Below are positions 6,756-57,921 of a stretch of DNA of 64,000 nt, one piece after another. The position numbers were made by a program, and so were the translations under genes. How positions within the stretch are numbered: the first letter of the stretch is position 1; each line of letters begins with the position of its first letter. The notes under the pieces are model-generated. The model was not told the origin of the DNA, did not search any database, and was given only the letters and a program-made list of their open reading frames with translations. This DNA is from a virus. Taxonomy: Duplodnaviria > Caudoviricetes. The DNA is taken from the IMG/VR virus record IMGVR_UViG_3300021425_003554; one strand, given 5' to 3'.

Positions 6756-6756
6756 T

Positions 6757-35764: not shown

Positions 35765-35802
35765 TAGACATTGTTCATAATACCCAGTATAATATACAAC
35801 AT

Positions 35803-40759: not shown

Positions 40760-40975
40760 ATGTACAATTGGCTGAACTGGTGGGTACCCAACGAGAGAGT
40801 GTTCAATTATGTATTTTTCCTGTTCTTGGGGTTGTATCTGTTGCCAAGCATAATGGGAATACGGTTTACAATGTTGGGATATGTTGTAAATCTAATATGG
40901 CTTGATGCCTTATACTATTGGAGTTATAAAAAAGCAGAAGAATTAAAAGATAGATTCAAGGACGACGATGAATAA
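40760..40975 (+). CDS. small membrane protein
   Basis: two TM-like segments. Confidence 0.6.
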   Translation: MYNWLNWWVPNERVFNYVFFLFLGLYLLPSIMGIRFTMLGYVVNLIWLDALYYWSYKKAEELKDRFKDDDE

Positions 40976-41339: not shown

Positions 41340-42357
41340 TGTAGATCAAATCACTATAAATTGCTTTTTCAAAATTAATACTTTTTAATACTTTCATTCC
41401 TTCTTGATAAATGTCAAAAACTTCTTTATCATTTTCTTTGGCATATTTTTCCATAGATGCACATTCATAATTAACATGAGTTGTGGATAAAAAGGCATTT
41501 TGTCTTTTATAAGCAATATCATCGTTATCCGGCATAACAAGTCCTAGAGATTTTTTAAACTCTTTGTGATCAAACACAGGATTGTGCCCTTGAAATTTTT
41601 GTACTTTTTCATTATCTAAATCTGCGTGTTGTTCATAAAAAGCAATGGCTTTGTGTGTTTGCCAATTGAGAATTTCAAAATCGTCCCAAAATAGATTAAA
41701 AAATTGAGGTAGATAGTATGTGCAATATTCTTGTGTATCAAAATAAATTAAATACCATTTATTATCGTCAAGGTAAAGACGAGGATGATCGTTTCCAGTT
41801 ATATGAATTGTTTTGTCGTTGATTAATCTTTCTTTCTCTATTGGGTGAGTATCTAAAATATTATATCTCATATGTTTGCTAAATCTATCTGTGATAAAAG
41901 GTTGCCTAACCCAATCTTCTTTGTGTTTTAAATAAAAACTTTTGGCAGTCTCGTATCCCACATCCAATACTGTTATTTTACTATTGAATTTTTTATTGTA
42001 ATTTTGTATATCCTTCATTACTAATCTTTTTTCTTCTTTATACAATGAATAAGGATCATATAATTTGTCATAAAAAACTAGTTCATCAAATTCAATATTA
42101 TGACGATACGCACAATCTAATATTGTCTTGCTGTCTGTTCCTCCACTGTACCACAAGATCAACCTAATATCTTGTTGTTTTAATTTTAGAAGTCTGTTTT
42201 TTATTAATTCATCTAAAGTGATGTCTGGACAATTTTTAAAATCATAATTCGTCAATGCATCTGTTTTATAATAAAATTTACAATTAGGATCGGACTCCAC
42301 AGCGATCACTTTGCTTAGATGTTTTTTTCCATTAGCCGTCCAGTAAACATCAATCAT
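41320..42357 (-). CDS. PP-loop family protein
   Basis: LILWYSGGTDS; HITGNDHP. Confidence 0.65.
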   Translation of the reverse strand: MIDVYWTANGKKHLSKVIAVESDPNCKFYYKTDALTNYDFKNCPDITLDELIKNRLLKLKQQDIRLILWYSGGTDSKTILDCAYRHNIEFDELVFYDKLYDPYSLYKEEKRLVMKDIQNYNKKFNSKITVLDVGYETAKSFYLKHKEDWVRQPFITDRFSKHMRYNILDTHPIEKERLINDKTIHITGNDHPRLYLDDNKWYLIYFDTQEYCTYYLPQFFNLFWDDFEILNWQTHKAIAFYEQHADLDNEKVQKFQGHNPVFDHKEFKKSLGLVMPDNDDIAYKRQNAFLSTTHVNYECASMEKYAKENDKEVFDIYQEGMKVLKSINFEKAIYSDLIYIKDQNF

Positions 42358-42671
42358 GTAAAATCCTTTAATTTTTTATCTAATAATTTTTGCACGATAT
42401 TTTTGTTTAACTTTTTATTATGATACAGAACAACAAACCTACGATGCTGTCTGCTTAAATTCAAAGAACAATAAGATTGTCCAAATTTTGTTGTGTGCAT
42501 AGAGTGTTTTTTCCAATTGGATACTATTTTATTATCAACTTCGTACACCTGAGCCTGCTCCCATTTATCTATAAAATACACAGTTCTATAGTTCATACCC
42601 TTATAGTTGATTGATGGTATTTCAAACTCCCCCGGGGCCTGATGTACTAGCTCTAATATTATTTCGCTCAT
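42354..42671 (-). CDS. hypothetical protein, resembles the C-terminal part of 42668
   Basis: FIDKWEQAQVYEVDNKIVSNWK vs LNDRKPGQFMHIEDKIINSWK. Confidence 0.55.
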   Translation of the reverse strand: MSEIILELVHQAPGEFEIPSINYKGMNYRTVYFIDKWEQAQVYEVDNKIVSNWKKHSMHTTKFGQSYCSLNLSRQHRRFVVLYHNKKLNKNIVQKLLDKKLKDFT

Positions 42672-43282
42672 AACTTTATAATTTTTTTCTTTTTAAATTT
42701 TTCAAACTTCTTCGTTGGGATACCTGTTATTCTCAATATCCAACGAGGTTCATTTCCGCAGTTTCCTGCTCCGTGATATACTTCCTTGCTATTATAATAA
42801 AACATATCGCCTTGTTTCCAACTATTAATAATTTTGTCTTCGATGTGCATGAACTGTCCAGGCTTTCGATCATTCAACATTAATAACATTCTATGGTACT
42901 CTGGATTTTTAAACTCATTTGCTTTGACATATAATTCTTTTCTCTCTGCTATATCGTAATCGGGCATATGATCTATGTGTCTTAGTTGTATTTCGCCTTG
43001 TTCATATTTCATTATGATCATTTGAGTATTTTTCCAACCTAGCAATTTTCTTAGTTTCTCTAATGTTGGCATTTTAACAGGATCTATATAACCTCGAGAA
43101 TTTCTTTTTATACCAATCTTTTTGTAATCGATATTTGCTTGTCCCATTTTAAGTGACTTTTTATAATCTTTCTTTTCAAGCACTTGTTCCAAATATTCTC
43201 TGCCAAAGTTTGCCTTATAGTATGATAATTCTTTATCAAAATTGCCACCCACTACTTGAAATTTGTGTACTTTCTTATTCAT
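42668..43282 (-). CDS. 2OG-Fe(II)/cupin-like oxygenase
   Basis: HID motif, WKQGD, HGAGN, R.ILRITG. Confidence 0.7.
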   Translation of the reverse strand: MNKKVHKFQVVGGNFDKELSYYKANFGREYLEQVLEKKDYKKSLKMGQANIDYKKIGIKRNSRGYIDPVKMPTLEKLRKLLGWKNTQMIIMKYEQGEIQLRHIDHMPDYDIAERKELYVKANEFKNPEYHRMLLMLNDRKPGQFMHIEDKIINSWKQGDMFYYNSKEVYHGAGNCGNEPRWILRITGIPTKKFEKFKKKKIIKL

Positions 43283-43283
43283 T

Positions 43284-44012
43284 TTAATTTTTCTCCTTTA
43301 GAATTTTATCAAATAACTCGTTTACAACAATACCTATTAATATAATAATGAAAAAGACAGCATACATGGTAGATGTTTCCATTATGTCTTTGGCATCTGT
43401 CATGTAAGTGCCTATACCCCAATGACTGCCTATAGTGCCAAACACAACTTCTATACCTATCAATATCCTCCAACTCAAATTCCAACACGTTTTGAAATTA
43501 GCGACCAATAAAGGTTTTAAACTAGGAAGATAAACTTTTATTATACTTTCTATTACTCCCAATCTTAGATTGCCACAGTGTTTAGACCATTTTGTCAGAG
43601 ATTCCTCCAAGGAAACGATCATGTTTAATCCCACCATCCAAACGGTAGCAAAGATCATTAATAAAATTATTGTTAATTCATTCACTCCAAACACGAGCAT
43701 GAAGACCGGCAACCATGCAAAAGTTGGTGTGGGTTGTAAAGATGCACAAAGGCTCTTGAAGATAAATCTAAATTGCTTATTTAAAACAGATATTATAATC
43801 ACAACAAACAATAGACTCAATATCAAAAACCAAGTTTTAATTAGGAATAAAATACTGTCTGTTAAGGCACCTATAAATCTTATATCAGTTAATAATTGAG
43901 GATATTCGACTATCAATATATCGATGCCTGGTAAAATATAATTGTTACCTATAGACATTGATAGTAATTGCCAAACTATTAAAATAATTACAAAACTTTT
44001 TATACTATTCAT
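43284..44012 (-). CDS. ABC transporter permease (SsuC/TauC/NitT-like)
   Basis: P.P.FAWLP...FG; EAA-like loop; GIG.Y; start moved to MNSIK. Confidence 0.85.
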   Translation of the reverse strand: MNSIKSFVIILIVWQLLSMSIGNNYILPGIDILIVEYPQLLTDIRFIGALTDSILFLIKTWFLILSLLFVVIIISVLNKQFRFIFKSLCASLQPTPTFAWLPVFMLVFGVNELTIILLMIFATVWMVGLNMIVSLEESLTKWSKHCGNLRLGVIESIIKVYLPSLKPLLVANFKTCWNLSWRILIGIEVVFGTIGSHWGIGTYMTDAKDIMETSTMYAVFFIIILIGIVVNELFDKILKEKN

Positions 44013-44560
44013 TTTACTTTGATAACTTTTCCTAATTGTTTGGCTTCTGTTTGATTGTGTGTAACCCATAAAACTTTTTTGTTTGTGCTTTTAACTAATT
44101 TTTTAAATTCTCTCACTATTTCTTTTCCTGTGGCACCATCAACACCGCTCATGGGTTCGTCACATAACAATATTGATCTATCACTATATAGAGCTCTCAT
44201 CAGAGTAAACCGTTGTTTCTGACCAACTGAACACTCGTTGGGCATTTTATCCAAATGTTTTTCTAATTTTAATTTTTTAGCAATCTTGTTCCAATTTATA
44301 TCTGTAACCAGTCTTAAATTTTCCCTCACGGTCATCCAAGGAAATAGTTGTTCTGTATCTTGAAATACCCTGAAAATATTTGAATTGTCTATGATCTTTC
44401 CTGTGTATTCACAACCTCCGGAGATACATTCGAGAAGACTAGTTTTTCCAATACCCGATGCTCCCATCAATGTGTTTACTTCGCCAGGTCGTAGATGTAG
44501 AGTTATAGGTCTAAATAACTCTACATTGTTTCTGAGAGGAGCAACAGAAATCAATTGCAT
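44009..44560 (-). CDS. ABC transporter ATP-binding protein
   Basis: GASGIGKT Walker A, Q...LFPWMTVREN, CSVGQKQR, LLCDEP, VTH. Confidence 0.92.
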   Translation of the reverse strand: MQLISVAPLRNNVELFRPITLHLRPGEVNTLMGASGIGKTSLLECISGGCEYTGKIIDNSNIFRVFQDTEQLFPWMTVRENLRLVTDINWNKIAKKLKLEKHLDKMPNECSVGQKQRFTLMRALYSDRSILLCDEPMSGVDGATGKEIVREFKKLVKSTNKKVLWVTHNQTEAKQLGKVIKVK

Positions 44561-45495
44561 TATTTCAACGCCTCTGCACGATAGATCATTTTTGATATGT
44601 CGCCTTTGTTATCTTTGAGATATTCTATTTCGTATAAAAAATTATTAAAATACTCTGATCCCCTTAGATCGGAATGGAATATTGCTTGATTTTTTATGTG
44701 TCCCTTTTGTAGATACTCCGCAGTTGTGTCCATTTTGTCTTTCTGAATAAATTTTTCTAAAATTGTTATAGGATCCTTGTTATAATCACGTATAACTTCT
44801 ACCGCTGTTGTTATGAAAGCATAAGCCAAATCGGGATTCTGATCAACCCAATCTTTCCTTGTCCAATAGGCATTGTATGATCCTGCTATACCTTTTTCAA
44901 CATCACTTGTGGCAACTGTAACAAAACCCAGTTCGTCCTGTATCTTGTTCTGTAATGGTGCTCCGGTCATCACGCATTTCACGTCAGAAGATCCGGCCTG
45001 CAATATTTGCCATATTTGAGGTCTTTTCATGGTAATAAAATTTTCATCAAGTGCATAAGGATCTCCAAAGTGTTCTTTTGCCAACCACCTGATTGTGTGA
45101 TGTTCCAAGGTGTTTCTACCAGAAGTGACAATTTTTGTAGTTTTAACATCTTCCATTGTTTTGATGTCAGGTGTACATTGTAAGAAATACTTGTAATGCC
45201 CAATGGCAGATAGCAACAAACTTTGCTCAGGCATCTTATCATTTAAAACAATGAACGATGTGATAGACCCCACGTTGACATCTATCTGTTTATTCATCAG
45301 TAAGGAATTGCCTTTGATGGATGATTTTGTTGGTACTGTGTTTACTGTTATGCCTCGTGCTTCTAATCTCTCGATTATTTCATATCCTATATGCTGATGA
45401 GCACCAAAGGTGGGTTGAATGGCCATTGTAAATTCCTTGGCCGATATTGTTGTTGTTATGATAGATATCAACAACGTCAGAATCATTTTCTTCAT
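44560..45495 (-). CDS. ABC substrate-binding protein (NMT1/SsuA/TauA-like)
   Basis: signal peptide, periplasmic binding protein type II pattern, heads the ABC operon. Confidence 0.75.
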   Translation of the reverse strand: MKKMILTLLISIITTTISAKEFTMAIQPTFGAHQHIGYEIIERLEARGITVNTVPTKSSIKGNSLLMNKQIDVNVGSITSFIVLNDKMPEQSLLLSAIGHYKYFLQCTPDIKTMEDVKTTKIVTSGRNTLEHHTIRWLAKEHFGDPYALDENFITMKRPQIWQILQAGSSDVKCVMTGAPLQNKIQDELGFVTVATSDVEKGIAGSYNAYWTRKDWVDQNPDLAYAFITTAVEVIRDYNKDPITILEKFIQKDKMDTTAEYLQKGHIKNQAIFHSDLRGSEYFNNFLYEIEYLKDNKGDISKMIYRAEALK

Positions 45496-45660
45496 ATAAT
45501 ATTCTCCTAGTTTTAAGTTTAACTACTAGGTTTATTATACCATACGGAAGGGCGTTCTGTCAAACAGTAAAGAGTAAAACTCAAGCGTCCTGTTAATTCC
45601 GACGTCACTACTGGAGTGGCGCTGTAATCGTATTTATAGATTTGATAGATGTGTTAAAAA

Positions 45661-45879
45661 CTATCTACCTAGTTTTTTTGATCTACCCAACGGTAATTTT
45701 TGTAGTTTGTAGAACTCCTCACCACTTTTGGTAGTCCATTCCACTTCCACAAATTTTGCTTTGGAACCGGACTGATAAGATTTCACTGCTCGTCTGTAAC
45801 CCAGTGCTTCAACTTCTTTGACCTGTTCTTCAGCGGGTGCTGTTTTATCTGTAAAAATAAATTTTCTGTTTTTTGGCAT
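45661..45879 (-). CDS. hypothetical protein, leaderless
   Basis: TTGACA-N17-TAATAT-N6-ATG. Confidence 0.65.
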   Translation of the reverse strand: MPKNRKFIFTDKTAPAEEQVKEVEALGYRRAVKSYQSGSKAKFVEVEWTTKSGEEFYKLQKLPLGRSKKLGR

Positions 45880-45954
45880 AAACTTATATTAACATCCAAA
45901 AAAACAAGTGTCAACCTATTGACAAAATACCATTAATGTGTTTAAATACTAGCA

Positions 45955-46256
45955 TGGACGTTGATGGGTAGACAATACCTGGACAAGACGTCGGGGCAGT
46001 ACCGACCACCTCCACCACTCACTTGAAACACACACAATAGATTTGTGCTTTGAGGGGGTGAACTAGGATCGATTGACAGTTAAAACTATCTGGAGTTCAT
46101 CGTGATTATTCCGACGTAATCGGGTTATTTTATAAATGCTAATAAAAAAGCATTGGGATTTGCTGACCTAACAGTTGGTCAATCTCAACTAAGATTAGCG
46201 GCTTAATAGCCAACAATCTTGCGGGTTTGGGGACACCTGGGAACAGAAGTTCCCCC
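45955..46256 (+). ncRNA. ssrA: circularly permuted (two-piece) tmRNA
   Basis: acceptor piece: T-arm GUCGG-GGCAGUA-CCGAC, CACCUCC-A-CCA ending 46017; intervening 46018-46053; coding piece starts GGGGGUG at 46054 (G3.U pair); tag ORF 46138-46206 ANKKALGFADLTVGQSQLRLAA*; TTGACA at 45919; outer ends approximate. Confidence 0.93.
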
Positions 46257-46341
46257 AACATAATACGATCGTATAACTTATAATGTCGTATATTCATTTG
46301 TCATCCTAACCTTAAATATTTCATATTAAACAGGGGTGTGA

Positions 46342-46632
46342 ATGAAAAAACGTAGACTACCAAAGCACAAACAGGTTTGGATGAAAATAAGGAAAAAGGC
46401 TCCCAAAGTTCCCGACATAACCTGCCCGGTCATTGATGATGTGATTGACAAGATAACCAAAATCAAAGAACTGGAAAAAATAATATCTCCCGCTCAATTA
46501 AAAACATTGAAAAAGAAAATGGAAAGACTACGAACAATGAACGAGCAATTGAGAGAAAGCGGACAGTACTGGCATGACGAATGTCAAAAATTAGTGGACG
46601 ACGTTTTCAAACACGGAAAATATAAATTTTAA
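46342..46632 (+). CDS. coiled-coil hypothetical protein (PDITCP.ID motif)
   Basis: ORF. Confidence 0.65.
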   Translation: MKKRRLPKHKQVWMKIRKKAPKVPDITCPVIDDVIDKITKIKELEKIISPAQLKTLKKKMERLRTMNEQLRESGQYWHDECQKLVDDVFKHGKYKF

Positions 46633-48101
46633 TTTATTTTTACAACAGCAGTAGGAAAGTTATCTGCATATAGCAAGGTCACTTTGTTTGTGAATTTCAT
46701 TTGTAGTAGATCTGATGCAAATATCCAACCCGTTCTTTTTGCCACCTGTAATGCTTTCTTACAAAAAGATACATTATGAAGGTTGCTTTTTTTATTCACA
46801 TATAAATTTAAATTTTCAGGATCAAGTTTTGAAACGGGTATCCTTGCCAGAGTCCAAAAATTCATCCAATTGTTACCTTCTTTGACTATCAAGTGATCAA
46901 ATTTATCTCCAACCATTTGATGTATCATTTTTTTAATCATTGTTGCGTTCGCTACATCTAAAGGATCTATAGTTTCTGTGTCAATAAAAGGCAACATTGA
47001 CATCAATTCAAAATCAGAAATTGGAGTGAATTCGTTGCCTATGTCTTTATTATCATACCCTCTTTGTTTTGGTTGAAAAAGTGTTATGATTCCCCAGTCG
47101 TTGTCCCATTCCAAATCCCAATCTATGCCGTTTACAGTTTTTGTATAATAATTTTCATCGATAGGTATGCGTTTTCCGATACGTCTGATCCATTCCCATT
47201 TATGAAATAAAACAGAATTCCCTTCGTGGCCGATTATTACAGGTCTATCTTTGAAATGTTCGGCGACCTCATAAGATTGATAATTAAAAAATGGTTCTGG
47301 ATCTATATTGTTCGCCCATTTGATCAGCGTGTCCTCGTTCATTTTTAATTCGGTGATTTTCTTAAAACCAAGTGTTTTTTCAAAACTCAGGTCAAGGTTG
47401 TTGTCAAATTTCAGAATTGCACCTTCACTGAGAACGTGTGACTTATTGGGATTATGCTTATTCTCATGATGATTTTTGTATTCTAAAGTTGGATTGCTAA
47501 GACGGTCTTTCCAATATGTCTCGGCGTAAGGATTTTTATTCCACAAAGGCAAAAATATTTTTCCATCGACTATTATTGGTTCATAGTCAGGCTCCTGATT
47601 ATTCACGTATACGAGTTCTGTTTTACCTAGAGCGTTGTATTTGTGCAAATAAGCCATTAATAGTATCGAGTCTATGCCTTGGCTGTACATTAAAACTATG
47701 TCATCATGCGAATCAATAAAGTCTTTCATTTTTTTATCAAGTTTTTCTACTGCAAATTTCTCAAATTCTTCGTATGGTATCGTGTTTCGAGGTAGGTCTC
47801 TAACTTCAATCAACCCCTCACTGTTCAATTGAAAATTTTGATAAAATGTGCTAGATTCCCACCCATGGAATATGGTTTCTTTGATGTTGTGTTTTTCAAT
47901 GAACGGATAACATTGAAAATTTACTCTACCTTTAGTCTCGACAGTGGTATTTGTATCTTGCTCTATTTGTTCAAGTGTTTTTGCAGTGATGGTATTGTCT
48001 GGACCATATTTTAAAAATATCTCCCAGTTCCGGCCATTTTTCCTTGTCCAATTTTTTAATAAGTCTTTTGTGTTCTGATCGGTGGGAGTATAGGTTTTCA
48101 T
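46629..48101 (-). CDS. asparagine-synthetase-like PP-loop protein
   Basis: VLMYSQGIDSILL; IIGHEGN; P.SD.EL. Confidence 0.6.
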   Translation of the reverse strand: MKTYTPTDQNTKDLLKNWTRKNGRNWEIFLKYGPDNTITAKTLEQIEQDTNTTVETKGRVNFQCYPFIEKHNIKETIFHGWESSTFYQNFQLNSEGLIEVRDLPRNTIPYEEFEKFAVEKLDKKMKDFIDSHDDIVLMYSQGIDSILLMAYLHKYNALGKTELVYVNNQEPDYEPIIVDGKIFLPLWNKNPYAETYWKDRLSNPTLEYKNHHENKHNPNKSHVLSEGAILKFDNNLDLSFEKTLGFKKITELKMNEDTLIKWANNIDPEPFFNYQSYEVAEHFKDRPVIIGHEGNSVLFHKWEWIRRIGKRIPIDENYYTKTVNGIDWDLEWDNDWGIITLFQPKQRGYDNKDIGNEFTPISDFELMSMLPFIDTETIDPLDVANATMIKKMIHQMVGDKFDHLIVKEGNNWMNFWTLARIPVSKLDPENLNLYVNKKSNLHNVSFCKKALQVAKRTGWIFASDLLQMKFTNKVTLLYADNFPTAVVKIN

Positions 48102-48472: not shown

Positions 48473-48624
48473 TTGACATATTTTGATAATGTGTTAAAAT
48501 TAAATTAACAAGACATATTAAAGTAAATGTCTATAAACTTGTTCCGTCGGATCTCGCTTATATTCGGCGGAACACACGACTCCACACCCTTTGGGTGTAA
48601 TTGAGTCAACATACAGGAGATGAT
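48473..48624 (+). promoter_or_regulatory. GGTTGAC-class promoter plus three-hairpin 5' leader
   Basis: TTGACA-N16-TAAAAT; hairpins AGACAT/ATGTCT, 48541-48573, 48578-48607. Confidence 0.6.
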
Positions 48625-49731
48625 ATGGAAAACAAAGTGAAAACTCTCAATCAAGTGGTTGAGGAATTCTACAAAGACGGCGAAGATGAAGTAGCCAATT
48701 TCAAAACAAGGTTAGAAACAGCCAGAGATAGGCTGAAAGAATTACAAAAAGATCCTGAAATGATATTACCGCAAGGTATTTCACAAGTGGAGATCAATGA
48801 CGATCTATGTTTCAATTACTCTGTACAACGAGACTTGAGACCTTCACACGTGGTTCGTATATGTGAAAAATTTGATCCCCGAGTGGTAAGACCCGCATCA
48901 GCAGTCAAAAGAGACGGAAAATACTTTTTGTTTGATGGACAACACACGTCTGTCGCATTATCGGTATTGGGTTTCAAGGCAGTGCCCATGACCTATGTTG
49001 AGACATCACATCAATCTTTTGATGCCATCGCATTTGAGATATTGAATGACACAGGTATATTGAGGGCAGGCACAGAAGAGATACACAGGGGTCTATTACA
49101 CAGATGGCACAACGATGTCCATTCTGAAAACGATAGGAATAATCCTAGGGTAAAAAATGCCTACACTGTTGATACCCTATTCAAAAAATGTGCTATAGAT
49201 TTAGAACCCAAGCGAGTGAGAAAGAGCCCGGGCAAGTGTGGTCCAAACAAACACTATTTCTCACATTTCGATTATGCATACAAAGGTTTAGAAATGACCG
49301 GCGATGCTGATGTTCTTGAAAAGATATTGTTGGGAATCAAACAATATTACGGAGATGAGGACGGAGGAGAAATCAATCAAGGTATCTACATAGGACTTGT
49401 AAAAATGTACGCATTAGCAAAAGAAGACGGTGCAACTAAATTTCTACCCAAAGATTGGATAGATAAAATTCTATCGGCACTGATCGATATATGTGGAAGG
49501 AATGCACAAGGAATACATTCTGCCTCTAAAAAGCAATGGCAACATTGCCGAGGCACATCATGGGACGCACCAGTGGCAATGAGTACTCTTATGAGAGAAG
49601 CATATCTTTCACACGCATCAGAAGATGATCAGTTCAATCCACCACACGAACCTAAGGTGTCCATGGGTTTATTGAAAAACGACATCTGTGCAGAGTTTGT
49701 TCCTTATTGTAAAATGAAAAACAATGTTTGA
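48625..49731 (+). CDS. ParB/sulfiredoxin-superfamily (DUF6551/DGQH-type) protein
   Basis: VQRDL...V.RI...FD; YFLFDGQHT; start moved to MENKV after AGGAG. Confidence 0.7.
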   Translation: MENKVKTLNQVVEEFYKDGEDEVANFKTRLETARDRLKELQKDPEMILPQGISQVEINDDLCFNYSVQRDLRPSHVVRICEKFDPRVVRPASAVKRDGKYFLFDGQHTSVALSVLGFKAVPMTYVETSHQSFDAIAFEILNDTGILRAGTEEIHRGLLHRWHNDVHSENDRNNPRVKNAYTVDTLFKKCAIDLEPKRVRKSPGKCGPNKHYFSHFDYAYKGLEMTGDADVLEKILLGIKQYYGDEDGGEINQGIYIGLVKMYALAKEDGATKFLPKDWIDKILSALIDICGRNAQGIHSASKKQWQHCRGTSWDAPVAMSTLMREAYLSHASEDDQFNPPHEPKVSMGLLKNDICAEFVPYCKMKNNV

Positions 49732-50266
49732 ACTAGATAGATATATGCGATTAGATCGCGAATTGGTAGGTAAGTTACAATTTAAATCTGCCAACAAAGT
49801 ATCGCTTGAGGCAGATGTAGAAATTCTAAATAGATTCAAAAACGATTTATTAAGTGAAAATGTCAACAGAGAAGTCAAAGGCAAGTACTTTTATTTTTTA
49901 CAGAGATACTTGAGGGACACACAAAAGGCACGATGTCCTGGACAGTCCCATTATGTGGCGGAAGGTGCCAATGAGGGCAAAGCACATCTCGAGCATCCAA
50001 TACCACAAAATAGGATACTACAAGCATACCTGGAAGGTCATATATCTGAGATTGAAGCAATCCATATGCCTTTGTGCCTTATATCAGATGCTGACAAACA
50101 CATCCTGGAAGGAGAATGGCAATACAATGCCACATGGCAGTATCCATTTCGAAGATATAAAATGGCAGGATTTACCAAAACAATTAAAAATTTAAGAGGA
50201 GAACCTATTGATTTAGACTTGTGGTCTATTGAAAATCATTTTACAATGTTAGGAGTAATAAAATGA
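49724..50266 (+). CDS. putative HNH-like nuclease (EHxxP)
   Basis: HLEHPIP...LCLI...PF.RY..AG; overlaps the upstream stop. Confidence 0.5.
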   Translation: MFELDRYMRLDRELVGKLQFKSANKVSLEADVEILNRFKNDLLSENVNREVKGKYFYFLQRYLRDTQKARCPGQSHYVAEGANEGKAHLEHPIPQNRILQAYLEGHISEIEAIHMPLCLISDADKHILEGEWQYNATWQYPFRRYKMAGFTKTIKNLRGEPIDLDLWSIENHFTMLGVIK

Positions 50267-51549
50267 AACCCTGGAAAATCATACAAGAACTGGAAGCGGA
50301 CAATTCGAGACTGAAGAAAGAAGCCATCATAAGGCGTGAGTCAGACGCGGAGAACATCAGGTTCTTCAACGGCGTTGGTGCGGCCTTGGATGGATTCAGG
50401 ACTTTTGGTGTACAGAAGGTGCCCGTATCAAAGAAGGATGGCACAGGAATCACACAGACCGAATTCGATGATGTCTTGAGAAGATTGGAAGACAGAACTC
50501 TCACAGGCAATGAAATGCGAGATGTGATCCAAGACCTTTGTGATAGATCAAACATGGAAGAATGGAACGACTGGTATCGTAGGATCTTGATAAAAGATCT
50601 AAGATGTGGGGTCACACACAAGACAATCAATAAGCATTCTACGATGAAGGTTCCTGTGTTCGAGTGTATGTTGGCAGACGACAGCAAGAAGCACGAAAAG
50701 AAGATGACAGGTGAAGTGTATGTTGAACCCAAACTGGATGGAGTCAGAGTGATAACAATATGCGACGTGGACAAGGACGAGGTTAAGATGTTCTCAAGAA
50801 ACGGCAAGGAATTAGTCAACTTTCCAAAGATACTTCAACAATTTGACGAGATGCTGGACCAGATGTCCGAGAGCATGGTGTTTGACGGCGAGGTCATGAG
50901 TGACGACTTCCAGACCCTGATGAGGGAGATACACAGGAAGGGTGGTGCCAAGACCGATGACGCGGTGCTTAACCTGTTTGATTGCCTGCCACTTGAACAC
51001 TTCAAGGAGGGTGGATCAAATAACACTTTGGGTCAAAGAAAGGATTGGTTGGACGGATATGATTATGGTCCAAACATATCCAAAGTAGAATATGTAAAAA
51101 TAGATTTAGATGACGACGATGGACAGAAGCAGTTCGCGGATTATAATAGATTATGTATAGACAAGGGATTTGAAGGTATAATGGTCAAACCCATCACAGG
51201 GATCTATGAGTGTAAGAGATCCAGCCTCTGGTTAAAAGTAAAACCTTTTATAGAAGTTTCTTTAACTGTCAAAGATGTTGAAGAAGGCACGGGTAGAAAT
51301 ATTGGTAAACTGGGTGCTCTCATTGTTGAAGGTACCGACGATGGTAAATTTATAAAAACTAATGTGGGATCTGGATTGACAGACCAGGATCGTGAAACAT
51401 ATTGGCAACACAAAGATAAATTATTAGGACAGGTTGTTGAAATTAGAGCAGATGCAATAACCCAAAATCAGGACACGACTAGGGAATATAGTCTACGTTT
51501 TCCTAGATTTTTAAGATTTAGAGGATTTGAAATAGGAGAAAAAATGTAA
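50263..51549 (+). CDS. lig: ATP-dependent DNA ligase
   Basis: EPKLDGVR, FSRNGK, FDGE, EGIMVK, W.KVK, GSG, SLRFPRF. Confidence 0.95.
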   Translation: MKPWKIIQELEADNSRLKKEAIIRRESDAENIRFFNGVGAALDGFRTFGVQKVPVSKKDGTGITQTEFDDVLRRLEDRTLTGNEMRDVIQDLCDRSNMEEWNDWYRRILIKDLRCGVTHKTINKHSTMKVPVFECMLADDSKKHEKKMTGEVYVEPKLDGVRVITICDVDKDEVKMFSRNGKELVNFPKILQQFDEMLDQMSESMVFDGEVMSDDFQTLMREIHRKGGAKTDDAVLNLFDCLPLEHFKEGGSNNTLGQRKDWLDGYDYGPNISKVEYVKIDLDDDDGQKQFADYNRLCIDKGFEGIMVKPITGIYECKRSSLWLKVKPFIEVSLTVKDVEEGTGRNIGKLGALIVEGTDDGKFIKTNVGSGLTDQDRETYWQHKDKLLGQVVEIRADAITQNQDTTREYSLRFPRFLRFRGFEIGEKM

Positions 51550-52571
51550 TGAAAAATATTGGAATTATAGGTTCTGGTAAAATTGGATCAACAATATATG
51601 CTTATCTAAAAACAACAGATCATAATATTAGTATAGCGGACAAAATACAAAAAAATGAAGTACAAAAGATAGATGTATTCAACAAAGACGACCTGGAATC
51701 CTTTGTGTCTAAACAAGACATATTGGTCTCAGGAGCACCTTATGATGCTAATCCTTTGATAGCAGATGCCTGTAATAAATTCAATGTGGCATATTTTGAT
51801 CTCACAGAAGACACAGCAGTGACAGATCACATCAAGACTTTCAAATCAGACACATTCATGATGCCGCAGTGTGGTTTTGCTCCGGGAGCCATTAATATTA
51901 TTGCAAGTAATCTTATCAAGCAATTTGAAAGAGTGGACAAAGTTAATATGAGAGGTGGAGCATTGCCTAAGTATCCAAACAATGCCATGGCCTATTATCT
52001 CACATGGAGTACGTCCGGATTGATCAACGAATACGTAAATGATTGTGATGTTATTAGAAATAACAAACACATCAAAACACTACCATTGGACGGTTTAGAA
52101 ACTTTATATGTTGATGGTGATAGATATGAGGCTTTTAACACATCTGGTGGAGCGGCCTCTATGTGTGAAACATTTTCTGACACAGTCAAAACACTTGACT
52201 ACAAAACTATAAGATATCCAGGACATCATGCCAGCATGAAATTCTTGTTGGACGATTTGAATTTAAAACACAACAAAGAAAAATTTATTGATCTATTTGA
52301 TCAGGAAGTGCCTTACACTACCGCTGATGTCATTGTGATGTTCGTTAGTGTGGTCGGCATCAAGAATGGTATGCTACAAGAAGTAACGTATAGTAAAAAA
52401 ATTTACGGAGATGAAAACTTCAGTGCCATACAGAGAACCACTGCATCCGGGGCCTGTGCGGTAGTCCTGGCCTATGCCGAAGGCAAATTAAAAGGCAAAG
52501 GATTTCAACGTCAAGAAAATATACCGTTTGATGTATTCACTGGTAATAAATTTGGAGAACTTTATGGATAA
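51549..52571 (+). CDS. saccharopine dehydrogenase-family enzyme (lysine 6-dehydrogenase-like)
   Basis: GIIGSGKIG; YFDLTED; CGFAPG; WS..GLINEY; EAFNTSGG; YKTIRYPGH; AIQRTTA. Confidence 0.85.
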   Translation: MKNIGIIGSGKIGSTIYAYLKTTDHNISIADKIQKNEVQKIDVFNKDDLESFVSKQDILVSGAPYDANPLIADACNKFNVAYFDLTEDTAVTDHIKTFKSDTFMMPQCGFAPGAINIIASNLIKQFERVDKVNMRGGALPKYPNNAMAYYLTWSTSGLINEYVNDCDVIRNNKHIKTLPLDGLETLYVDGDRYEAFNTSGGAASMCETFSDTVKTLDYKTIRYPGHHASMKFLLDDLNLKHNKEKFIDLFDQEVPYTTADVIVMFVSVVGIKNGMLQEVTYSKKIYGDENFSAIQRTTASGACAVVLAYAEGKLKGKGFQRQENIPFDVFTGNKFGELYG

Positions 52572-53967
52572 ACAAAAATATAACGTGATTGTCAACAGGG
52601 CCATGGACGCCCAGATGTTATGGAAAAATGTTCCTGCTCCGAAAAGAGGAGAACTAATCAGAATATTTGGCAACAAATTAAGAGAAAATTTACAAGAGTT
52701 AGGAGAACTGGTCACAAAGGATTCCAAAAAAATTATTGCGGAAGGAATAGGAGAGGTACAAGAAGCGATAGATATGTGTGATTTCGGGGTGGGATTGTCA
52801 AGACAACTTTACGGATTGACTATGCCATCGGAAAGACAAGATCACAAGTTAATGGAAGTATGGCATCCACTCGGAGTTGTTGGAGTCATATCTGCTTTTA
52901 ATTTTCCTTGTGCTGTATGGTCATGGAATCATATACTTTCTATAGTGTGTGGAAATTCTGTTGTATGGAAACCATCACCCCTCAGTATGAACATCACTCT
53001 AAAATGTAAAGAGTTATGGGATGAGTCAATTGTTGAATTTTTAAAAAACGTGACAGTGAAACATACACAAGGTGATAGATTTCATTTACAAGATCTATTG
53101 GGCATAGTCGAAGGCGGAAAAGAAGCCGCCGAATGGATAGCAGACGATCCTAGAATAAAATTAGTAAGTGCCACAGGTTCCACAGAGATGGGCAAAGCAT
53201 TGGCTCCTAGAGTTTCGGCAAGATTAGGAAAATCTTTATTAGAATTGGGTGGTAACAATGCAATGATAGTTTCACAACACGCAAACTTGAATCTTGCGAT
53301 TAGAGCCATAGTATTCAGTGCTGTGGGAACTTGCGGACAAAGATGTACAACATTGAGAAGATTGATTGTTAACGAAAACATTTACGATACACTACTTGAA
53401 AAAATTAAATCTGCATACAGCAGTTTGACAATAGGTGATCCAATGGATCCTAAAAATTTAGTGGGACCTTTGATCAATCAACAATCTGTTGACAGAATGC
53501 AAGAAGTTTTAAAAAAATGTCGAGAAAGAGGACATATTGTACACGGTGGAGAAGTTATCGAAGGTTGCTATGTAAAACCTGCCATAGTGGAAGTCAAAGA
53601 GCAGGACGAGTTGGTACACAACGAAACTTTTGCTCCTATACTGTACATTTTGAAGTATATCACTCTAGATAATGCTATCAGAAAACACAACATTGTTCCA
53701 CAGGGATTAAGTTCTTGTATTTTTACAGATAATCTGCAAGAAGCAGAAAAATTTATATCTGTGCTGGGATCAGACTGTGGTATTGTAAATATTAATATAG
53801 GTCCTTCAGGTGCAGAAATTGGTGGAGCATTTGGTGGAGAGAAAGACACAGGCGGTGGACGAGAAAGTGGTTCGGATGCATGGAAACAATATATGCGTAG
53901 ATCAACCATCACTGTAAATTATGGAGAAGATTTGCCTTTGGCACAAGGCATAACTTTTGATGTATAA
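52564..53967 (+). CDS. ALDH7-family aldehyde dehydrogenase (AASA/P6C dehydrogenase-like)
   Basis: GEVQEAIDMCDF.VGLSRQLYG.T..SER; SAFNFPCAVW; LELGGNNA; GTCGQRCTTLRR; SDCGIVN.NIG.SGAEIGGAFGGEK.TGGGRESGSDAWKQYMRR. Confidence 0.92.
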   Translation: MDKQKYNVIVNRAMDAQMLWKNVPAPKRGELIRIFGNKLRENLQELGELVTKDSKKIIAEGIGEVQEAIDMCDFGVGLSRQLYGLTMPSERQDHKLMEVWHPLGVVGVISAFNFPCAVWSWNHILSIVCGNSVVWKPSPLSMNITLKCKELWDESIVEFLKNVTVKHTQGDRFHLQDLLGIVEGGKEAAEWIADDPRIKLVSATGSTEMGKALAPRVSARLGKSLLELGGNNAMIVSQHANLNLAIRAIVFSAVGTCGQRCTTLRRLIVNENIYDTLLEKIKSAYSSLTIGDPMDPKNLVGPLINQQSVDRMQEVLKKCRERGHIVHGGEVIEGCYVKPAIVEVKEQDELVHNETFAPILYILKYITLDNAIRKHNIVPQGLSSCIFTDNLQEAEKFISVLGSDCGIVNINIGPSGAEIGGAFGGEKDTGGGRESGSDAWKQYMRRSTITVNYGEDLPLAQGITFDV

Positions 53968-54572
53968 TGAATGTATATCCAAAAGGTTTTTATCAAGATC
54001 CAAATTTGTATTTTGATATAAACAAATTACAATCAGCAGTACAAGAAGTCGATAGTCGTGTGGCTAGACAATCCCCGCTTGGTAAAAGAGACATCAATGC
54101 AATTTGTTTAACACAGATACCCGGTGATCCAAATTCCATAACCGGAGGCAACGTGAGAGGCTACTTTTGGACAAAGCCAGATCACACGGGGATAGAAGTT
54201 ACTCGAGAAAAACCCATAGACGAGACCAAGTATTCCGAGTTTGTCAAATTGTTTGAAGACACTTACTTCAAAGAAGTGTATGATACACTATCTACAAAGT
54301 ATCAATTGGGTAGAATACGACTGCTTTGGAAACTGCCAAGAACAACATTGAGCTGGCATAGAGATCCCGAACCCAGACTGCACATACCTATCATAACCAA
54401 TCCCGGTGCTCACATGGTTGTTGAGTCAGTGAACTTTCATATGCCTGCAGACGGACACGTATGGATAACCAATAACACAAAATATCATAATGCATTCAAC
54501 GGTGGAGAAGAAGATAGAGTTCATCTAGTTGCCACTGTATTAAATTTTGACTTGAGTTTGTTTGGAGATTGA
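53967..54572 (+). CDS. aspartyl/asparaginyl beta-hydroxylase-like cupin oxygenase
   Basis: LSWHRD...RLHIPIITN...H.AFNGG..DRVHLV. Confidence 0.75.
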   Translation: MNVYPKGFYQDPNLYFDINKLQSAVQEVDSRVARQSPLGKRDINAICLTQIPGDPNSITGGNVRGYFWTKPDHTGIEVTREKPIDETKYSEFVKLFEDTYFKEVYDTLSTKYQLGRIRLLWKLPRTTLSWHRDPEPRLHIPIITNPGAHMVVESVNFHMPADGHVWITNNTKYHNAFNGGEEDRVHLVATVLNFDLSLFGD

Positions 54573-54573
54573 T

Positions 54574-54714
54574 ATGAAATATTTTGGAAAATATCTAGAT
54601 ATGTTTGTATCAAATAAAACAAAAAAAACCAAAAAACTAAAAACAAAAAAGAAAAAAACCAAAAGAAGAAGAAGACGAGAAATATCCGATGACGATTGGA
54701 GCGGAATAGTCTAA
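54574..54714 (+). CDS. small Lys/Arg-rich peptide (46 aa)
   Basis: manual translation; GGAG SD. Confidence 0.45.
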   Translation: MKYFGKYLDMFVSNKTKKTKKLKTKKKKTKRRRRREISDDDWSGIV

Positions 54715-54718
54715 CAAA

Positions 54719-54877
54719 ATGAAAAGTTATAAAATAGAAATCAAGGCAGGTGATAAAGTGGAAGTTGGACGTTTCCGTAATGTACAGGCCACAATCAAAA
54801 GCATCGAAACAGATATTAATGGTCAACCCGTGATTGTTACCAACCAAAGAAAATACTTTATCTATAGAAAAGTATGA
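54719..54877 (+). CDS. small KOW/SH3-like protein (52 aa)
   Basis: manual translation IKAGDKVEVGRF. Confidence 0.5.
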   Translation: MKSYKIEIKAGDKVEVGRFRNVQATIKSIETDINGQPVIVTNQRKYFIYRKV

Positions 54878-55569
54878 AAACTTTATTGTTAAACGGATGT
54901 AGTTTTACAGAATGTTGGACACCGTCAAAATATTTTTTAGATAATTTAAATTGTGACACCTATGTTAATATTGGCAAAGTTGCTACCAGTTTCCAAAGGA
55001 CTTGTAGATCCACTATAGAATGGATAGCACAAAACGGTGACCCAAGTTTTATCATTATACCTATAACTTTTAGCCATCGTTGGGAATTGGCTCTTTATAA
55101 AGAAGAAGATACGATAGATGGAGCGTGGACTCCATTACAAATATCAGATCTCATCAATGAGAAACATGAACTACATGGAACAAATTTTAAAGATTTAAAA
55201 AAACTTATTGACGATTATTACAAAATCATTCCTACAATAAAAACCTATTGGGATAAGCAATTTACTGAGATTATAATGTTGGCTGGTTGGTTGGACAGCA
55301 AAAATATACCTTATTTGATGTTTGATATGTGCAATGAATTTGATATGAAACATCTAAAAGGTTACAAAGGATTTTCAAAATTAGATATTATTAAAACCAA
55401 TAATAAAATAATCAATCTATTTAATTTTTGTGGTAATAGATATATGTGGAGCACCATGCCAAACAAAGACCAAATAGATTTTAATATACATCATGCACCT
55501 GAACAATATATTGAATTAGAAAAATATCTATTAAATTACCTTAAAAAAATATCAATAACGGCTGTTTAA
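54874..55569 (+). CDS. SGNH/GDSL-like hypothetical protein
   Basis: LLLNGCSF block I; C-terminal HH.PE. Confidence 0.55.
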   Translation: MKTLLLNGCSFTECWTPSKYFLDNLNCDTYVNIGKVATSFQRTCRSTIEWIAQNGDPSFIIIPITFSHRWELALYKEEDTIDGAWTPLQISDLINEKHELHGTNFKDLKKLIDDYYKIIPTIKTYWDKQFTEIIMLAGWLDSKNIPYLMFDMCNEFDMKHLKGYKGFSKLDIIKTNNKIINLFNFCGNRYMWSTMPNKDQIDFNIHHAPEQYIELEKYLLNYLKKISITAV

Positions 55570-55733: not shown

Positions 55734-57032
55734 ATGGAACTTGCAATTATTTTATCTTCTGGTATCCTGACCGGAATACTGATAGGATTGTTTCCTGTAT
55801 TTCCTATATATTTGGGTGCATTTCTGTTGTATGTTACTGCCACAATTTGGTCACCCGAACAAATGTTATTGTTCTGGGCAGTCAGCAGTATAGGATCTCA
55901 ATTTTTTTGCAGTGTATCAACCATCACATTGGGTATTCCTGGAGATGCGAGTAGCCTGATTTATGTCAATGATGTTAAGAAGTTATCACTATCGGAAAGA
56001 AATAGTTTGCTATGGCAAACGTCGCGAGGTAGTCTGATAAGCGCCTTCTCGGCACTGTGTTTGGTATGGATACTTTATACTACCTATACAACATCAGGAA
56101 TGCGTTTCATGGGAGGAGTTGAAATAAAATTTTTTTTGTTGTACACAGTGATATTATTTCTAATATTCACTAGCAATAAAAAACTAATGACGGCTTTGAT
56201 AGCATTCATGGCTATTTTCATCGCTCCACAAAACAATTATGCTTTGCCAATAAGTTGGTACTCTGCTTCCATATTTTTACAACACACAACTTTCTTTATG
56301 TTGGTACTTGCAATGGTTGTTATTCCTGATGTTGTCTCATATGACACTGGATTTATCAAAAACGATAAAGAAAAATTTGAACCAAAGAAAACAAAACTGC
56401 CATGGTGGTTGGTAGTAAAAAACACCATAGTAGGCTGTGTGGTCAGTTTGATTCCTGGTCCATCAGCAGAACTATCAGCGGCAACTGCCTATCATACAAC
56501 CAGATCCAATACCAATGACAAGATTATAGCGGCCGAGACTGCCAACAATCCCGGAGTGATCATGATGCTGTTGCCTTTTTTTCTTCTCGGATTGCCTTTT
56601 ACTCCAAGCAGTATTATTGTGAGCAACATAATGGATATCAAAGTGGTAAATGTTATTGAATTGGCCAAATCGTCAAGCACCGTACTGCCCGGAGTGTCGG
56701 TGTTGGATAGTATAATAATACTCGCATTGGTAACTGTTGTTTTTTATTACTTGTTGAGTCTTAGATTTATAAACTTTTATACCTCTATGGTAAAACTAGC
56801 ACATAGCCAATTAAAAATAATACTATTGATGTTGGTGTTAGGTATGATTTACTTGGATGTATCTATACAAGAAATATCTTGGATAAGTTATTTGTCCTTA
56901 CTACTAGGATATACAATTATTGGTTTTATAATGAAAAGATATAACATCAATGCCATGCCTTTTATATTCATATACTTGTTGGGAGATGTGATAATATGGA
57001 CAACCATGCAGGTTTATCTGATCCATTTTTAA
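55734..57032 (+). CDS. tripartite tricarboxylate transporter large subunit (TctA-like)
   Basis: GILIGLFP; LGIPGDASS; IPG.SA; AAETANN; LGLPFTPSS; about 11-12 TM. Confidence 0.8.
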   Translation: MELAIILSSGILTGILIGLFPVFPIYLGAFLLYVTATIWSPEQMLLFWAVSSIGSQFFCSVSTITLGIPGDASSLIYVNDVKKLSLSERNSLLWQTSRGSLISAFSALCLVWILYTTYTTSGMRFMGGVEIKFFLLYTVILFLIFTSNKKLMTALIAFMAIFIAPQNNYALPISWYSASIFLQHTTFFMLVLAMVVIPDVVSYDTGFIKNDKEKFEPKKTKLPWWLVVKNTIVGCVVSLIPGPSAELSAATAYHTTRSNTNDKIIAAETANNPGVIMMLLPFFLLGLPFTPSSIIVSNIMDIKVVNVIELAKSSSTVLPGVSVLDSIIILALVTVVFYYLLSLRFINFYTSMVKLAHSQLKIILLMLVLGMIYLDVSIQEISWISYLSLLLGYTIIGFIMKRYNINAMPFIFIYLLGDVIIWTTMQVYLIHF

Positions 57033-57087
57033 CATCATAGAAAAAACAAAGTCATAATTATTAAAAAAACTAAAATTTTGGAGAACC

Positions 57088-57921
57088 ATGAAAAAAATCA
57101 GTTTAATCATAATGAGTTTGTTTGTTATGATCACATCAGCAAACGCAATCACTATTGTCAATCACAGCAACAAGGCATCACCAGGAACGGTATTAGCAAA
57201 AAGTTTTGAAAATGCATTGAACATATCTTCAGCAAGTTTTTACCAAGCAGGTAATTGTGAGGATGCAGAAGCAAAATTCCAATCCACAAAAGATGCCATC
57301 ATGATCTACAATGTGGATGTGGCAATCGCGGCAATGGGCAAGAAATTAGATTGTCCCCTTCCTGCAAAAGCAGAAAAAACTGTTTTTATTGGTAAAAGTT
57401 ATCTAGATATCTGTACCAATGCTCGTGATCCAAAAGATTTAAAAGATGCTAGAACAATGGGCGGAGCATCTGTGATTCTATCCAAAGGACTGGTAAATGA
57501 CATAAACAATCAACCCGGAGTCAACGTAAAAGGTATTCCATATGGTGGAAGTAAAAATGTGCTTGCCGCCATAATCGCCGGTGACATAGACATAGGCTAT
57601 GTTGGTCACGGAGTGAATAGACCGTCTGTGGAAAATGGAGATGTGATCTGTCCAATACAGGGCAATCCAAAAGACAAAGATTATATTGGTAATAAGTTAG
57701 ATATGCAAATACCAGATTTTCCAATTATCAAAATGATATACACAAACAGCGATGATCCAGAACTTATTGCCAAAATGAGGAAAGCAGTACAGTCAGAAGA
57801 TTTCCAGGCCTACCTTAAAAAAAGTGGTTACGGTGATGTAAAAATTGATAATATCACCCAGAACGATGTAGATGGCAGTTGGAAGCATGGGGTCAAAGTC
57901 TACGAATTATATTGGAAATAG
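57088..57921 (+). CDS. periplasmic binding protein (TctC/Bug-like)
   Basis: signal peptide; IPYGGS...AIIAGDID. Confidence 0.7.
   Translation: MKKISLIIMSLFVMITSANAITIVNHSNKASPGTVLAKSFENALNISSASFYQAGNCEDAEAKFQSTKDAIMIYNVDVAIAAMGKKLDCPLPAKAEKTVFIGKSYLDICTNARDPKDLKDARTMGGASVILSKGLVNDINNQPGVNVKGIPYGGSKNVLAAIIAGDIDIGYVGHGVNRPSVENGDVICPIQGNPKDKDYIGNKLDMQIPDFPIIKMIYTNSDDPELIAKMRKAVQSEDFQAYLKKSGYGDVKIDNITQNDVDGSWKHGVKVYELYWK

Follow-up and report, generated by a model that had tools for sequence, protein, structure and literature searches.

A described counterpart of the two lysine genes treated here is found in Ruegeria (Silicibacter) pomeroyi, where the pair SPO0234 (lysdh) and SPO0235 (aasadh) was verified experimentally and aminoadipate accumulates under salt stress (PMC4334477, summarising Neshich et al. 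2013). The one solved lysine 6-dehydrogenase (LysDH) is the archaeal, thermophilic enzyme PH1688 of Pyrococcus horikoshii, entry 3ABI of the Protein Data Bank (PDB). A further relevant enzyme, Cpz10, is a beta-hydroxylase of caprazamycin biosynthesis with an iron triad, an arginine that binds 2-oxoglutarate (2OG) and two extra histidines; it places a hydroxyl group on the beta-carbon of an alpha-amino-acid moiety and can oxidise free methionine as well (PMC9814697). For viruses, a one-line remark on a KEGG category credits large marine phages with a higher share of 'lysine degradation' genes (PMC10732071), and a paper on polyamines in the virosphere brings in lysine 6-dehydrogenase solely for its kinship with homospermidine synthase (HSS). 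Within the library that could be searched, no paper on phages or auxiliary metabolic genes together with saccharopine or lysine dehydrogenase was found in which the pair is described as a set of phage genes, and nothing specific was found on SAR86 together with lysine or aminoadipate. Here we analysed a 64,000-nucleotide (nt) stretch of Caudoviricetes DNA (IMG/VR record IMGVR_UViG_3300021425_003554, hereafter the window), which carries a cassette of three overlapping genes at 51549-54572. We consider it likely, though well short of certain, that this cassette is a phage auxiliary module for conversion of lysine to 2-aminoadipate, accompanied by a hydroxylase with a separate function.

Gene 1 (51549..52571, + strand) encodes a 340-residue protein of the predicted L-lysine 6-dehydrogenase type, probably dependent on nicotinamide adenine dinucleotide (NAD). 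Gene 2 (52564..53967, +) encodes a 467-residue ALDH7-type L-piperideine-6-carboxylate (P6C)/2-aminoadipate-semialdehyde dehydrogenase, and gene 3 (53967..54572, +) encodes a 201-residue Cpz10-like 2OG/Fe(II) oxygenase, called the hydroxylase below. As in R. pomeroyi and in most of 80 bacterial loci compared, the two lysine genes are adjacent with the LysDH gene first; the phage pair differs in being viral, in its 8-nt overlap and in its place in an operon with a DNA ligase gene upstream and a 2OG oxygenase gene downstream. The sequence-only reading, an earlier reading made from the DNA letters alone, had reported three overlapping genes here, and both the reading frames and their junctions were verified in the sequence. 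The overlaps amount to 1 nt (ligase/LysDH), 8 nt (LysDH/ALDH7) and 1 nt (ALDH7/hydroxylase). The ligase stop and the LysDH start have one base in common (TAATG at 51547-51551), as have the ALDH7 stop and the hydroxylase start (TAATG at 53965-53969). The LysDH stop codon is the TAA at 52569-52571, and the 8-nt overlap reads ATGGATAA, with GGAG 5 nt upstream of the ATG at 52564. This ATG is most likely the ALDH7 start, since the resulting length of 467 residues fits the phage homologues (456-463 residues) and the 475-position NCBIfam model, and a Shine-Dalgarno site precedes it. The alternative start at TTG 52528 (479 residues) was rejected on the same lengths and the same ribosome-binding site.

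Assignment of the gene 1 product to the LysDH type (EC 1.4.1.18) is a prediction, well supported by sequence and by structural modelling. Both Pfam domains of the family, Sacchrp_dh_NADP and Sacchrp_dh_C, were matched. The best PDB relative was P. horikoshii LysDH, with an E-value of 1.4e-19 (73.8 bits) in the sequence search and 1.2e-28 (103 bits) when a profile of 14 sequences was used. With the same profile, the saccharopine dehydrogenase domain of human AASS, yeast Lys9 and saccharopine reductase scored 38, 29 and 26 bits, respectively, and neither carboxyspermidine dehydrogenase (CASDH) nor HSS was matched in the sequence or profile searches of the PDB. Another PDB entry, 3IC5 (118 residues, 41.8 bits), we take to be the N-terminal fragment of R. 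pomeroyi LysDH. The AlphaFold2 (AF2) model of gene 1 had a mean pLDDT of 87.5 and superimposed on 3ABI from end to end at equal length, with template-modelling (TM) scores of 0.82/0.80 and a root-mean-square deviation of 3.3 A. Other saccharopine-dehydrogenase subfamilies reached TM-scores on the target (TMt) of 0.6-0.7 and were 50-100 residues longer. The build of gene 1 fits the two-domain LysDH plan (about 340-385 residues), without the insertions found in saccharopine reductase, CASDH and HSS. The phage enzyme thus resembles PH1688 in being its best match in sequence and fold, in equal length, in two domains and in the T-x-R of the substrate loop; it differs from this archaeal, thermophilic enzyme in that only about 25% of residues are identical. 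G8, G10 and G13 of a GxGxxG motif and D31 at the end of strand 2 were invariant; by the general rule, such a glycine motif with an invariant acidic residue after strand 2 suggests that NAD is the cofactor. The segment Y218-K-T220-I-R222 was invariant in 14 homologues, and its threonine and arginine also align with 3ABI. In a model of the Geobacillus stearothermophilus enzyme LysEDH, Y238, T240 and R242 bind lysine through its alpha-amino and alpha-carboxylate groups, and H181 is listed as well (PMC6697735). Y218, T220 and R222 of the phage protein have the same spacing as the first three of these residues.

The product of gene 2 was matched by the NCBIfam model for L-piperidine-6-carboxylate dehydrogenase (NF050084) with 701 bits, the next family scoring 242. 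Against PDB structures of ALDH7A1, antiquitin and Pcd, the scores were 445-554 bits. Alignment with seabream antiquitin (2JG7) and bacterial ALDH7 structures showed that gene 2 keeps the motifs GEVQE, FNFPxAVWxW, ELGGNN and GQRCTT and the C-terminal PLAQG, and the motifs that carry the catalytic cysteine, the general-base glutamate and the oxyanion asparagine (GQRCTT, ELGGNN and FNFP) were invariant in 10 aligned homologues. ALDH7A1 recognises aminoadipate through Glu121, Arg301, Thr303, Phe168, Trp175 and a C-terminal Ala-Gln contributed by the adjacent subunit. In the alignments, every semialdehyde-binding residue examined was present in gene 2. The enzyme is therefore like ALDH7A1, antiquitin, Pcd and AmaB in its catalytic Cys/Glu/Asn, in the Glu and Arg-Cys-Thr that hold the aminoadipate end, in the aromatic box and in PLAQG; it differs from the crystallised enzymes in being about 45 residues shorter at the N-terminus and in having a loop of its own. 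This insertion of about 10 residues was absent from the other phage copies, and the window ALDH7 sat on a long tree branch and showed no damage.

The cassette recurs in 14 marine viral contigs, of which 13 further IMG/VR contigs were found through LysDH and one (L104) through the hydroxylase. The ALDH7 and hydroxylase genes followed directly behind the LysDH gene in every viral contig that reached far enough, with gaps or overlaps of 0-17 nt between the genes. Amino acid identity to the window was 65-84% for LysDH, 65-69% for ALDH7 and 77-86% for the hydroxylase. The ratio of nonsynonymous to synonymous substitution (dN/dS) was 0.04-0.13 for the cassette genes, with saturated synonymous sites, and the cassette is under strong purifying selection. 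The same order in 13 further contigs, identities of 65-86% and a dN/dS of at most 0.13 set this gene set beyond chance. Three flanking contexts were observed: the ligase gene lies directly upstream of LysDH in the window; a conserved open reading frame (ORF) of 80 codons lies upstream and the ligase gene 3 kb downstream in contigs L002-L011; and L012 and L013 form the third. Similarities were discordant among the three genes. The window LysDH was 84% identical to the L002 group and 65-68% to the others, ALDH7 was about 68% identical to all, and the hydroxylase was closest to those of L007 and L013, which suggests recombination inside the cassette or uneven rates of change. The nearest contig, L001 (IMG/VR contig 3300040815_003492), is about 99% identical to the window. 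Clustered at 90% identity, the metagenomic relatives that share at least 60% identity formed dozens of groups, drawn from Tara, JGI and ENA samples. When GenBank phages were searched at the DNA and protein levels, no cultured phage with the pair was returned.

Two more distant viral genomes carry parts of this gene content. Among the GenBank phages searched, only the 636-kb genome of an uncultured huge phage (LR756504.1) encodes an ALDH7, which is 51.5% identical to that of the window (469767-471131, - strand), and 75 kb away from it lies a distant Sacchrp_dh-like gene (26% identity; 394245-394904, +). Giant phages unrelated to this one can thus carry ALDH7 too. Another phage lineage, represented by the 108-kb contig L112 (IMG/VR 3300020478_000004), has an amino-acid catabolism cluster at positions 1-8843, with genes in the order of a non-ALDH7 aldehyde dehydrogenase, a thioredoxin-like protein, proline dehydrogenase, a LysDH-like gene and a Cpz10-like hydroxylase; on the opposite strand is a gene for a truncated class II aminoacyl-tRNA-synthetase-like protein of 304 residues. 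The LysDH-like protein of L112 was 37% identical to that of the window and keeps a YKTIRY motif, and its gene is just upstream of that for a 38%-identical hydroxylase.

In bacteria, LysDH and ALDH7 homologues were adjacent in about 60 of the 80 best loci, from Pseudomonadota, Verrucomicrobiota, Planctomycetota, Myxococcota and other groups. A LysDH homologue was present in 63 of 401 sampled alphaproteobacterial genomes, at 35-48% identity to the phage protein. Among the genomes sampled, the closest cellular relatives of both phage genes were the pairs of SAR86 (e.g., CP097968.1), with identities of 48-53% for LysDH and 54-57% for ALDH7. Trees were obtained from a quick maximum-likelihood search in IQ-TREE, with SH-aLRT support and without a root. 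Their bacterial sequences came solely from the 80 loci that best match the phage LysDH, and closer cellular relatives may exist outside that set. The 14 phage LysDH proteins formed one clade (SH-aLRT 99), as did the 14 phage ALDH7 proteins (99). The phage clade joined the SAR86 clade with a support of 100 in the ALDH7 tree and of 99 in the LysDH tree when the very long branch of L112 was left out, indicating that both genes were transferred together, a single time, between these phages and the SAR86 lineage or a relative of it outside the sample. Being unrooted, the trees give no direction to this transfer. Phage and SAR86 have the short N-terminal form of ALDH7 in common; the SAR86 pair differs in its reversed order (ALDH7 then LysDH, with a 10-nt gap) and has no adjacent hydroxylase. 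New here are the placement of both lysine genes with those of SAR86 and the union of the phage sequences in one clade, together with two results given below: a homologue of the hydroxylase on a bacterial chromosome, and cellular genomes that have either the pair or the hydroxylase and lack the other.

The cassette lies in a viral genome, has cellular homologues and is conserved among related viruses, and in these respects it fits the definition of phage auxiliary metabolic genes. In the mechanism that we propose, the cassette would be expressed in the infected cell on a long, translationally coupled transcript that begins at about 48.5 kb. The NAD-dependent product of gene 1 would remove the epsilon-amino group of L-lysine, giving ammonium, NADH and 2-aminoadipate 6-semialdehyde, and the semialdehyde would cyclise to P6C. 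Gene 2 would then irreversibly oxidise the product of gene 1 to L-2-aminoadipate with formation of a second NAD(P)H. The phage may benefit by tapping the lysine pool for ammonium and reducing power, and would gain further nitrogen and carbon if host enzymes transaminate aminoadipate. Gene 3, which has a cellular homologue of its own, would belong to the older core of this phage group and hydroxylate some other substrate. We infer from sequence which substrates are used, which way the flux runs, when the genes are expressed and what the phage gains. The sequence-only reading had likewise proposed a LysDH-like enzyme and an ALDH7 in an auxiliary route from lysine to 2-aminoadipate, and protein families, structures, active sites and gene context all lend that proposal good support.

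The hydroxylase was assigned to Pfam PF05118 (Asp_Arg_Hydrox) as a single domain of 201 residues, with a score of 36.0 bits against a gathering cut-off of 22.6. Its sole significant relative of solved structure by sequence was Cpz10 (7V4F; E-value 1e-13, 24% identity). The AF2 model (pLDDT 82.7) matched Cpz10 over its whole length with a TMt of about 0.8, and AlkB, proline hydroxylases and human AspH were far behind in the fold comparison. H131, D133 and H174, which form the iron triad, and R184, which binds 2OG, were invariant in 20 homologues, and H139 and H186 are invariant residues as well; H131, D133, H174, R184, H139 and H186 align in that order with H115, D117, H160, R170, H123 and H172 of Cpz10. 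The two proteins are thus alike in a single cupin domain of about 180-200 residues (7V4F/7V4M), an HRD...H triad, the 2OG-binding arginine and the two extra histidines. They differ in that the first 85 or so residues of gene 3 have no significant sequence match, and genes for a nucleoside antibiotic are not found nearby. The name of a peptide Asp/Asn hydroxylase of the AspH kind, in which an oxygenase domain is joined to a TPR domain and acts on EGF-like domains, was rejected, as gene 3 has a single domain and structures of human AspH matched its model weakly (TM-score on the query, TMq, 0.39-0.46; E-value about 3e-4). A Protein Atlas search with gene 3 gave no clusters beyond generic ones labelled 'Asp/Asn hydroxylase domain'.

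Hydroxylases of this kind are known from phages and bacteria that have no lysine pair. An aspartyl/asparaginyl beta-hydroxylase is, with peptide deformylase and ribosomal protein S21, core to all pelagimyophages (Zaragoza-Solas et al. 2020, PMC7029224), and that paper makes no mention of lysine, saccharopine or aldehyde dehydrogenase genes. The protein Mosig_00118 of Pelagibacter phage Mosig was 55.7% identical to gene 3 over 92% of its length; in Mosig, however, the hydroxylase gene adjoins pstS and the lysine genes are absent. Six viral contigs encode a hydroxylase 76-82% identical to that of the window, with no pair within 5 kb. Full-length homologues were found in 9 of the 401 alphaproteobacterial genomes, and the best chromosomal one (66% identity; locus L138, 5960-6550, at about 144.96-145.55 kb of contig C2) belongs to a genome of 1.3 Mb with 27% G+C over a 12.5-kb stretch. 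There it stands among housekeeping genes in the order lepB, rnc, recO, hemB, hydroxylase, rpiB, glyA, nrdR, ribD. The same genome contained no LysDH (the profile reached 18 bits, on the Rossmann motif only) and no ALDH7 (the best aldehyde dehydrogenase was 29% identical). Conversely, the hydroxylase was detected neither in the complete SAR86 genome that carries the pair nor in a 1.8-Mb genome with 31% G+C that has both lysine genes on separate contigs. This reciprocal presence and absence in the cellular genomes examined shows that the pair and the hydroxylase came from different cellular sources; among the genomes examined, they were found together only in phages. In streamlined marine bacteria, these unstudied oxygenases may have a housekeeping role that merits attention.

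Gene 3 probably serves a function apart from the lysine route, and the position of the gene weighs on the other side. It lies directly after the pair in all 14 contigs that reach that far, across three flanking contexts, and in the window it starts on the ALDH7 stop codon. The adjacency of a LysDH-like gene and a hydroxylase gene in the distant contig L112, together with this recurrent linkage, suggests some functional tie. Such a tie would be explained by one phage-specific pathway, in which the oxygenase hydroxylates lysine, pipecolate/P6C or 2-aminoadipate before or after the dehydrogenases act, so that a hydroxylated lysine-derived product is made or 2OG use is tied to lysine breakdown. 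The gaps and overlaps of 0-17 nt favour this pathway. As the substrate of Cpz10 is a small molecule that contains an alpha-amino-acid moiety, gene 3 could conceivably take a free amino acid, and a weaker fold match was found to L-proline cis-4-hydroxylase with bound L-pipecolate (4P7X; E-value 1.3e-4, TMq 0.53). However, the hydroxylase is core to pelagimyophages, whereas the pair was present in only some of the related viral contigs fetched, and in the cellular genomes examined the two never occurred together. Moreover, since the 14 phage pairs descend from one acquisition, their shared position beside the hydroxylase counts as about one event and not as 14. We therefore regard a single three-step pathway as a minority possibility. 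A more specific form of it, in which a SAR86-type pair and an alphaproteobacterial Cpz10-like oxygenase were joined into a three-enzyme route found only in viruses, with a hydroxy-aminoadipate or hydroxy-pipecolate-type product or with processing of hydroxylysine, is a little less likely again. Of the 'three-enzyme operon' proposed in the sequence-only reading, co-transcription stands, since the pair lies directly upstream of the hydroxylase and the three genes are expected to be co-expressed; a common pathway sits poorly with a hydroxylase that occurs without the pair in pelagimyophages and on an alphaproteobacterial chromosome.

The identity of the pair itself has points against it. The phage LysDH is about 25% identical to the one solved LysDH, its bacterial homologues (40-53% identity) include none that is tied by sequence to an assayed enzyme, and the activities of the phage clade members are predicted ones. 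The correspondence with LysEDH covers Y218, T220 and R222, three of four residues when H181 is counted. For gene 2, the 701 bits fall 29 under the equivalog cut-off of 730 for NF050084. The SAR86 orthologue scored 673-674 bits against this model, and the shortfall fits a divergent clade, the cut-off being a threshold for naming and not a catalytic feature. Gene 1 might instead encode another member of the saccharopine-dehydrogenase superfamily, such as a saccharopine reductase, a carboxy(nor)spermidine dehydrogenase or an enzyme that dehydrogenates ornithine or a different omega-amine, with the aldehyde dehydrogenase oxidising another aminoaldehyde. This would accord with the low identity to 3ABI, with the lack of a match between the gene 1 protein and any curated NCBIfam model, and with source annotations that say only 'saccharopine dehydrogenase-like oxidoreductase'; ALDH7 enzymes also take other aldehydes, such as betaine aldehyde. 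Against it, whether judged by sequence, profile, length or fold, LysDH was clearly a better match than AASS, Lys9, saccharopine reductase, CASDH or HSS, the Y-x-T-x-R motif assigned to binding of the alpha-amino and alpha-carboxylate groups is kept in gene 1, and the partner enzyme keeps the residues that grip the alpha-amino-carboxylate end of a C6 substrate. The same pairing is also widespread in bacteria and verified in R. pomeroyi. A different chemistry for the pair is accordingly unlikely in our estimation.

Weakest by far is the idea, raised in the sequence-only reading by analogy with cephamycin, that the pair feeds 2-aminoadipate into a specialised product for which Rieske/2OG oxygenases and AsnB-like PP-loop enzymes encoded nearby would be needed. 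The stretch at 38974-48101 of the window does encode a Rieske protein and Asn-synthase-like proteins, along with an operon for an ABC importer. These genes belong to other units (38974-40759, +; 41320-45495, -; 46629-48101, -), partly on the other strand and 6-10 kb off, with a gene for transfer-messenger RNA (tmRNA) between them and the cassette; they stand beside the cassette only in near-identical L001 and were not found next to it in the 12 more distant related contigs, and the largest ORF of the window is a ribonucleotide reductase of 810 residues, leaving none of the size of a nonribosomal peptide synthetase, so that this proposal was dropped as very improbable.

Coupling extended on both sides of the cassette, indicating that 48601 to 55569 is one packed run of genes on the + strand. 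Upstream, and outside the lysine chemistry, are genes for a ParB-like DUF6551 protein (48601-49731), a 180-residue ORF (49724-50266) and an ATP-dependent DNA ligase (50263-51549; phrog_114 match of 303 bits); the overlaps from the ParB-like gene to LysDH are 8, 4 and 1 nt. Downstream, an ORF of 46 residues (54574-54714) starts 1 nt past the hydroxylase stop, and an ORF of 52 residues (54719-54877) overlaps by its stop (ATGA, 4 nt) the start of a DUF6071-like gene (54874..55569, 231 residues), which is the last of the run. The best sigma-70-like promoter ahead of the run was at 48473..48500 (TTGACA-16-TAAAAT with TG, 11 of 12 positions, a match to consensus only), and it probably starts the transcript that carries the cassette. 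No terminator-like site was found on the + strand from this promoter to 53933. A possible internal promoter within the ligase gene (51120..51147, +; TGGACA-16-TATAAT, 11 of 12), about 400 nt before the LysDH start, is not conserved in relatives, whose ligase gene sits elsewhere. Promoter-like sites at 55584 and 55699 open the next unit, past the DUF6071-like gene. An Rfam search of 45.5-58.5 kb, the lysine riboswitch included, returned only tmRNA, and the T4 late-promoter motif TATAAATA occurred at chance level, with none near the cassette.

The 46-residue ORF is very basic, about half of it being Lys or Arg, with an acidic, tryptophan-containing C-terminus; among the loci at hand, it was matched only in L001. 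That contig is missing the DUF6071-like gene and has in its place a small ORF, about 100 nt and then a TctA gene, a difference that is a recent gain or loss of a single gene. In the window, the gene for the TctA-family membrane transporter subunit (432 residues) is followed by one for a 277-residue protein with a signal peptide (55734-57921, +). The two promoters at 55584 and 55699, both strong, lie upstream of it, and TctA stands beside the cassette only in L001. A functional link between cassette and transporter was rejected, as the latter has promoters of its own and adjoins the cassette only in this near-identical contig.

The window belongs to a large uncultured marine phage. Besides the ATP-dependent DNA ligase, its typical phage genes encode a virion structural protein, an Mtd_N tail-fibre protein, an exonuclease and the class I ribonucleotide reductase; metabolic genes of a host-like kind are numerous as well. 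A protein collection records the window's LysDH-like protein on a contig of 234 kb. At 41320-45495 (-), a complete ABC importer with an NMT1-like binding protein, an ATPase and a permease is followed by tightly packed ORFs of 204, 105 and 345 residues, the last of these without a Pfam match. At 33741-37406 (+) are genes for SufE, a PstS-type phosphate-binding protein, a 265-residue ORF like a fragment of UDP-glucose/GDP-mannose dehydrogenase and a protein of the KDO8P/DAHP-synthase family. The tmRNA (45899-46257, +) is a two-piece, circularly permuted RNA of the alphaproteobacterial type (Rfam RF01849, 112 bits; RF04321, 93 bits), for which ARAGORN gave a tag of 22 residues. This type of tmRNA, the hydroxylase that is core to pelagimyophages and the 66%-identical homologue in a small alphaproteobacterial genome of low G+C point, as a lead, to a SAR11-like host. 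Should the host be SAR11-like and that one genome be representative, the phage may bring a lysine-oxidising capacity that its host lacks.

The enzymes of the cassette are ordinary members of known families. Phage auxiliary metabolic genes reveal the host resources that are limiting for the production of marine viruses. If the reading proposed here is true, amino-acid catabolism and nitrogen remobilisation would join photosynthesis, phosphate uptake, nucleotide metabolism and sulfur metabolism among the functions that phages encode. The grouping of the phage pair with that of SAR86 represents gene flow between a phage lineage of alphaproteobacterial appearance and an uncultured gammaproteobacterial clade. 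A lysine route encoded by viruses would yield ammonium and two reducing equivalents per lysine, and since the module is common in marine metagenomes, it may have some weight in the flow of nitrogen and carbon through the ocean.

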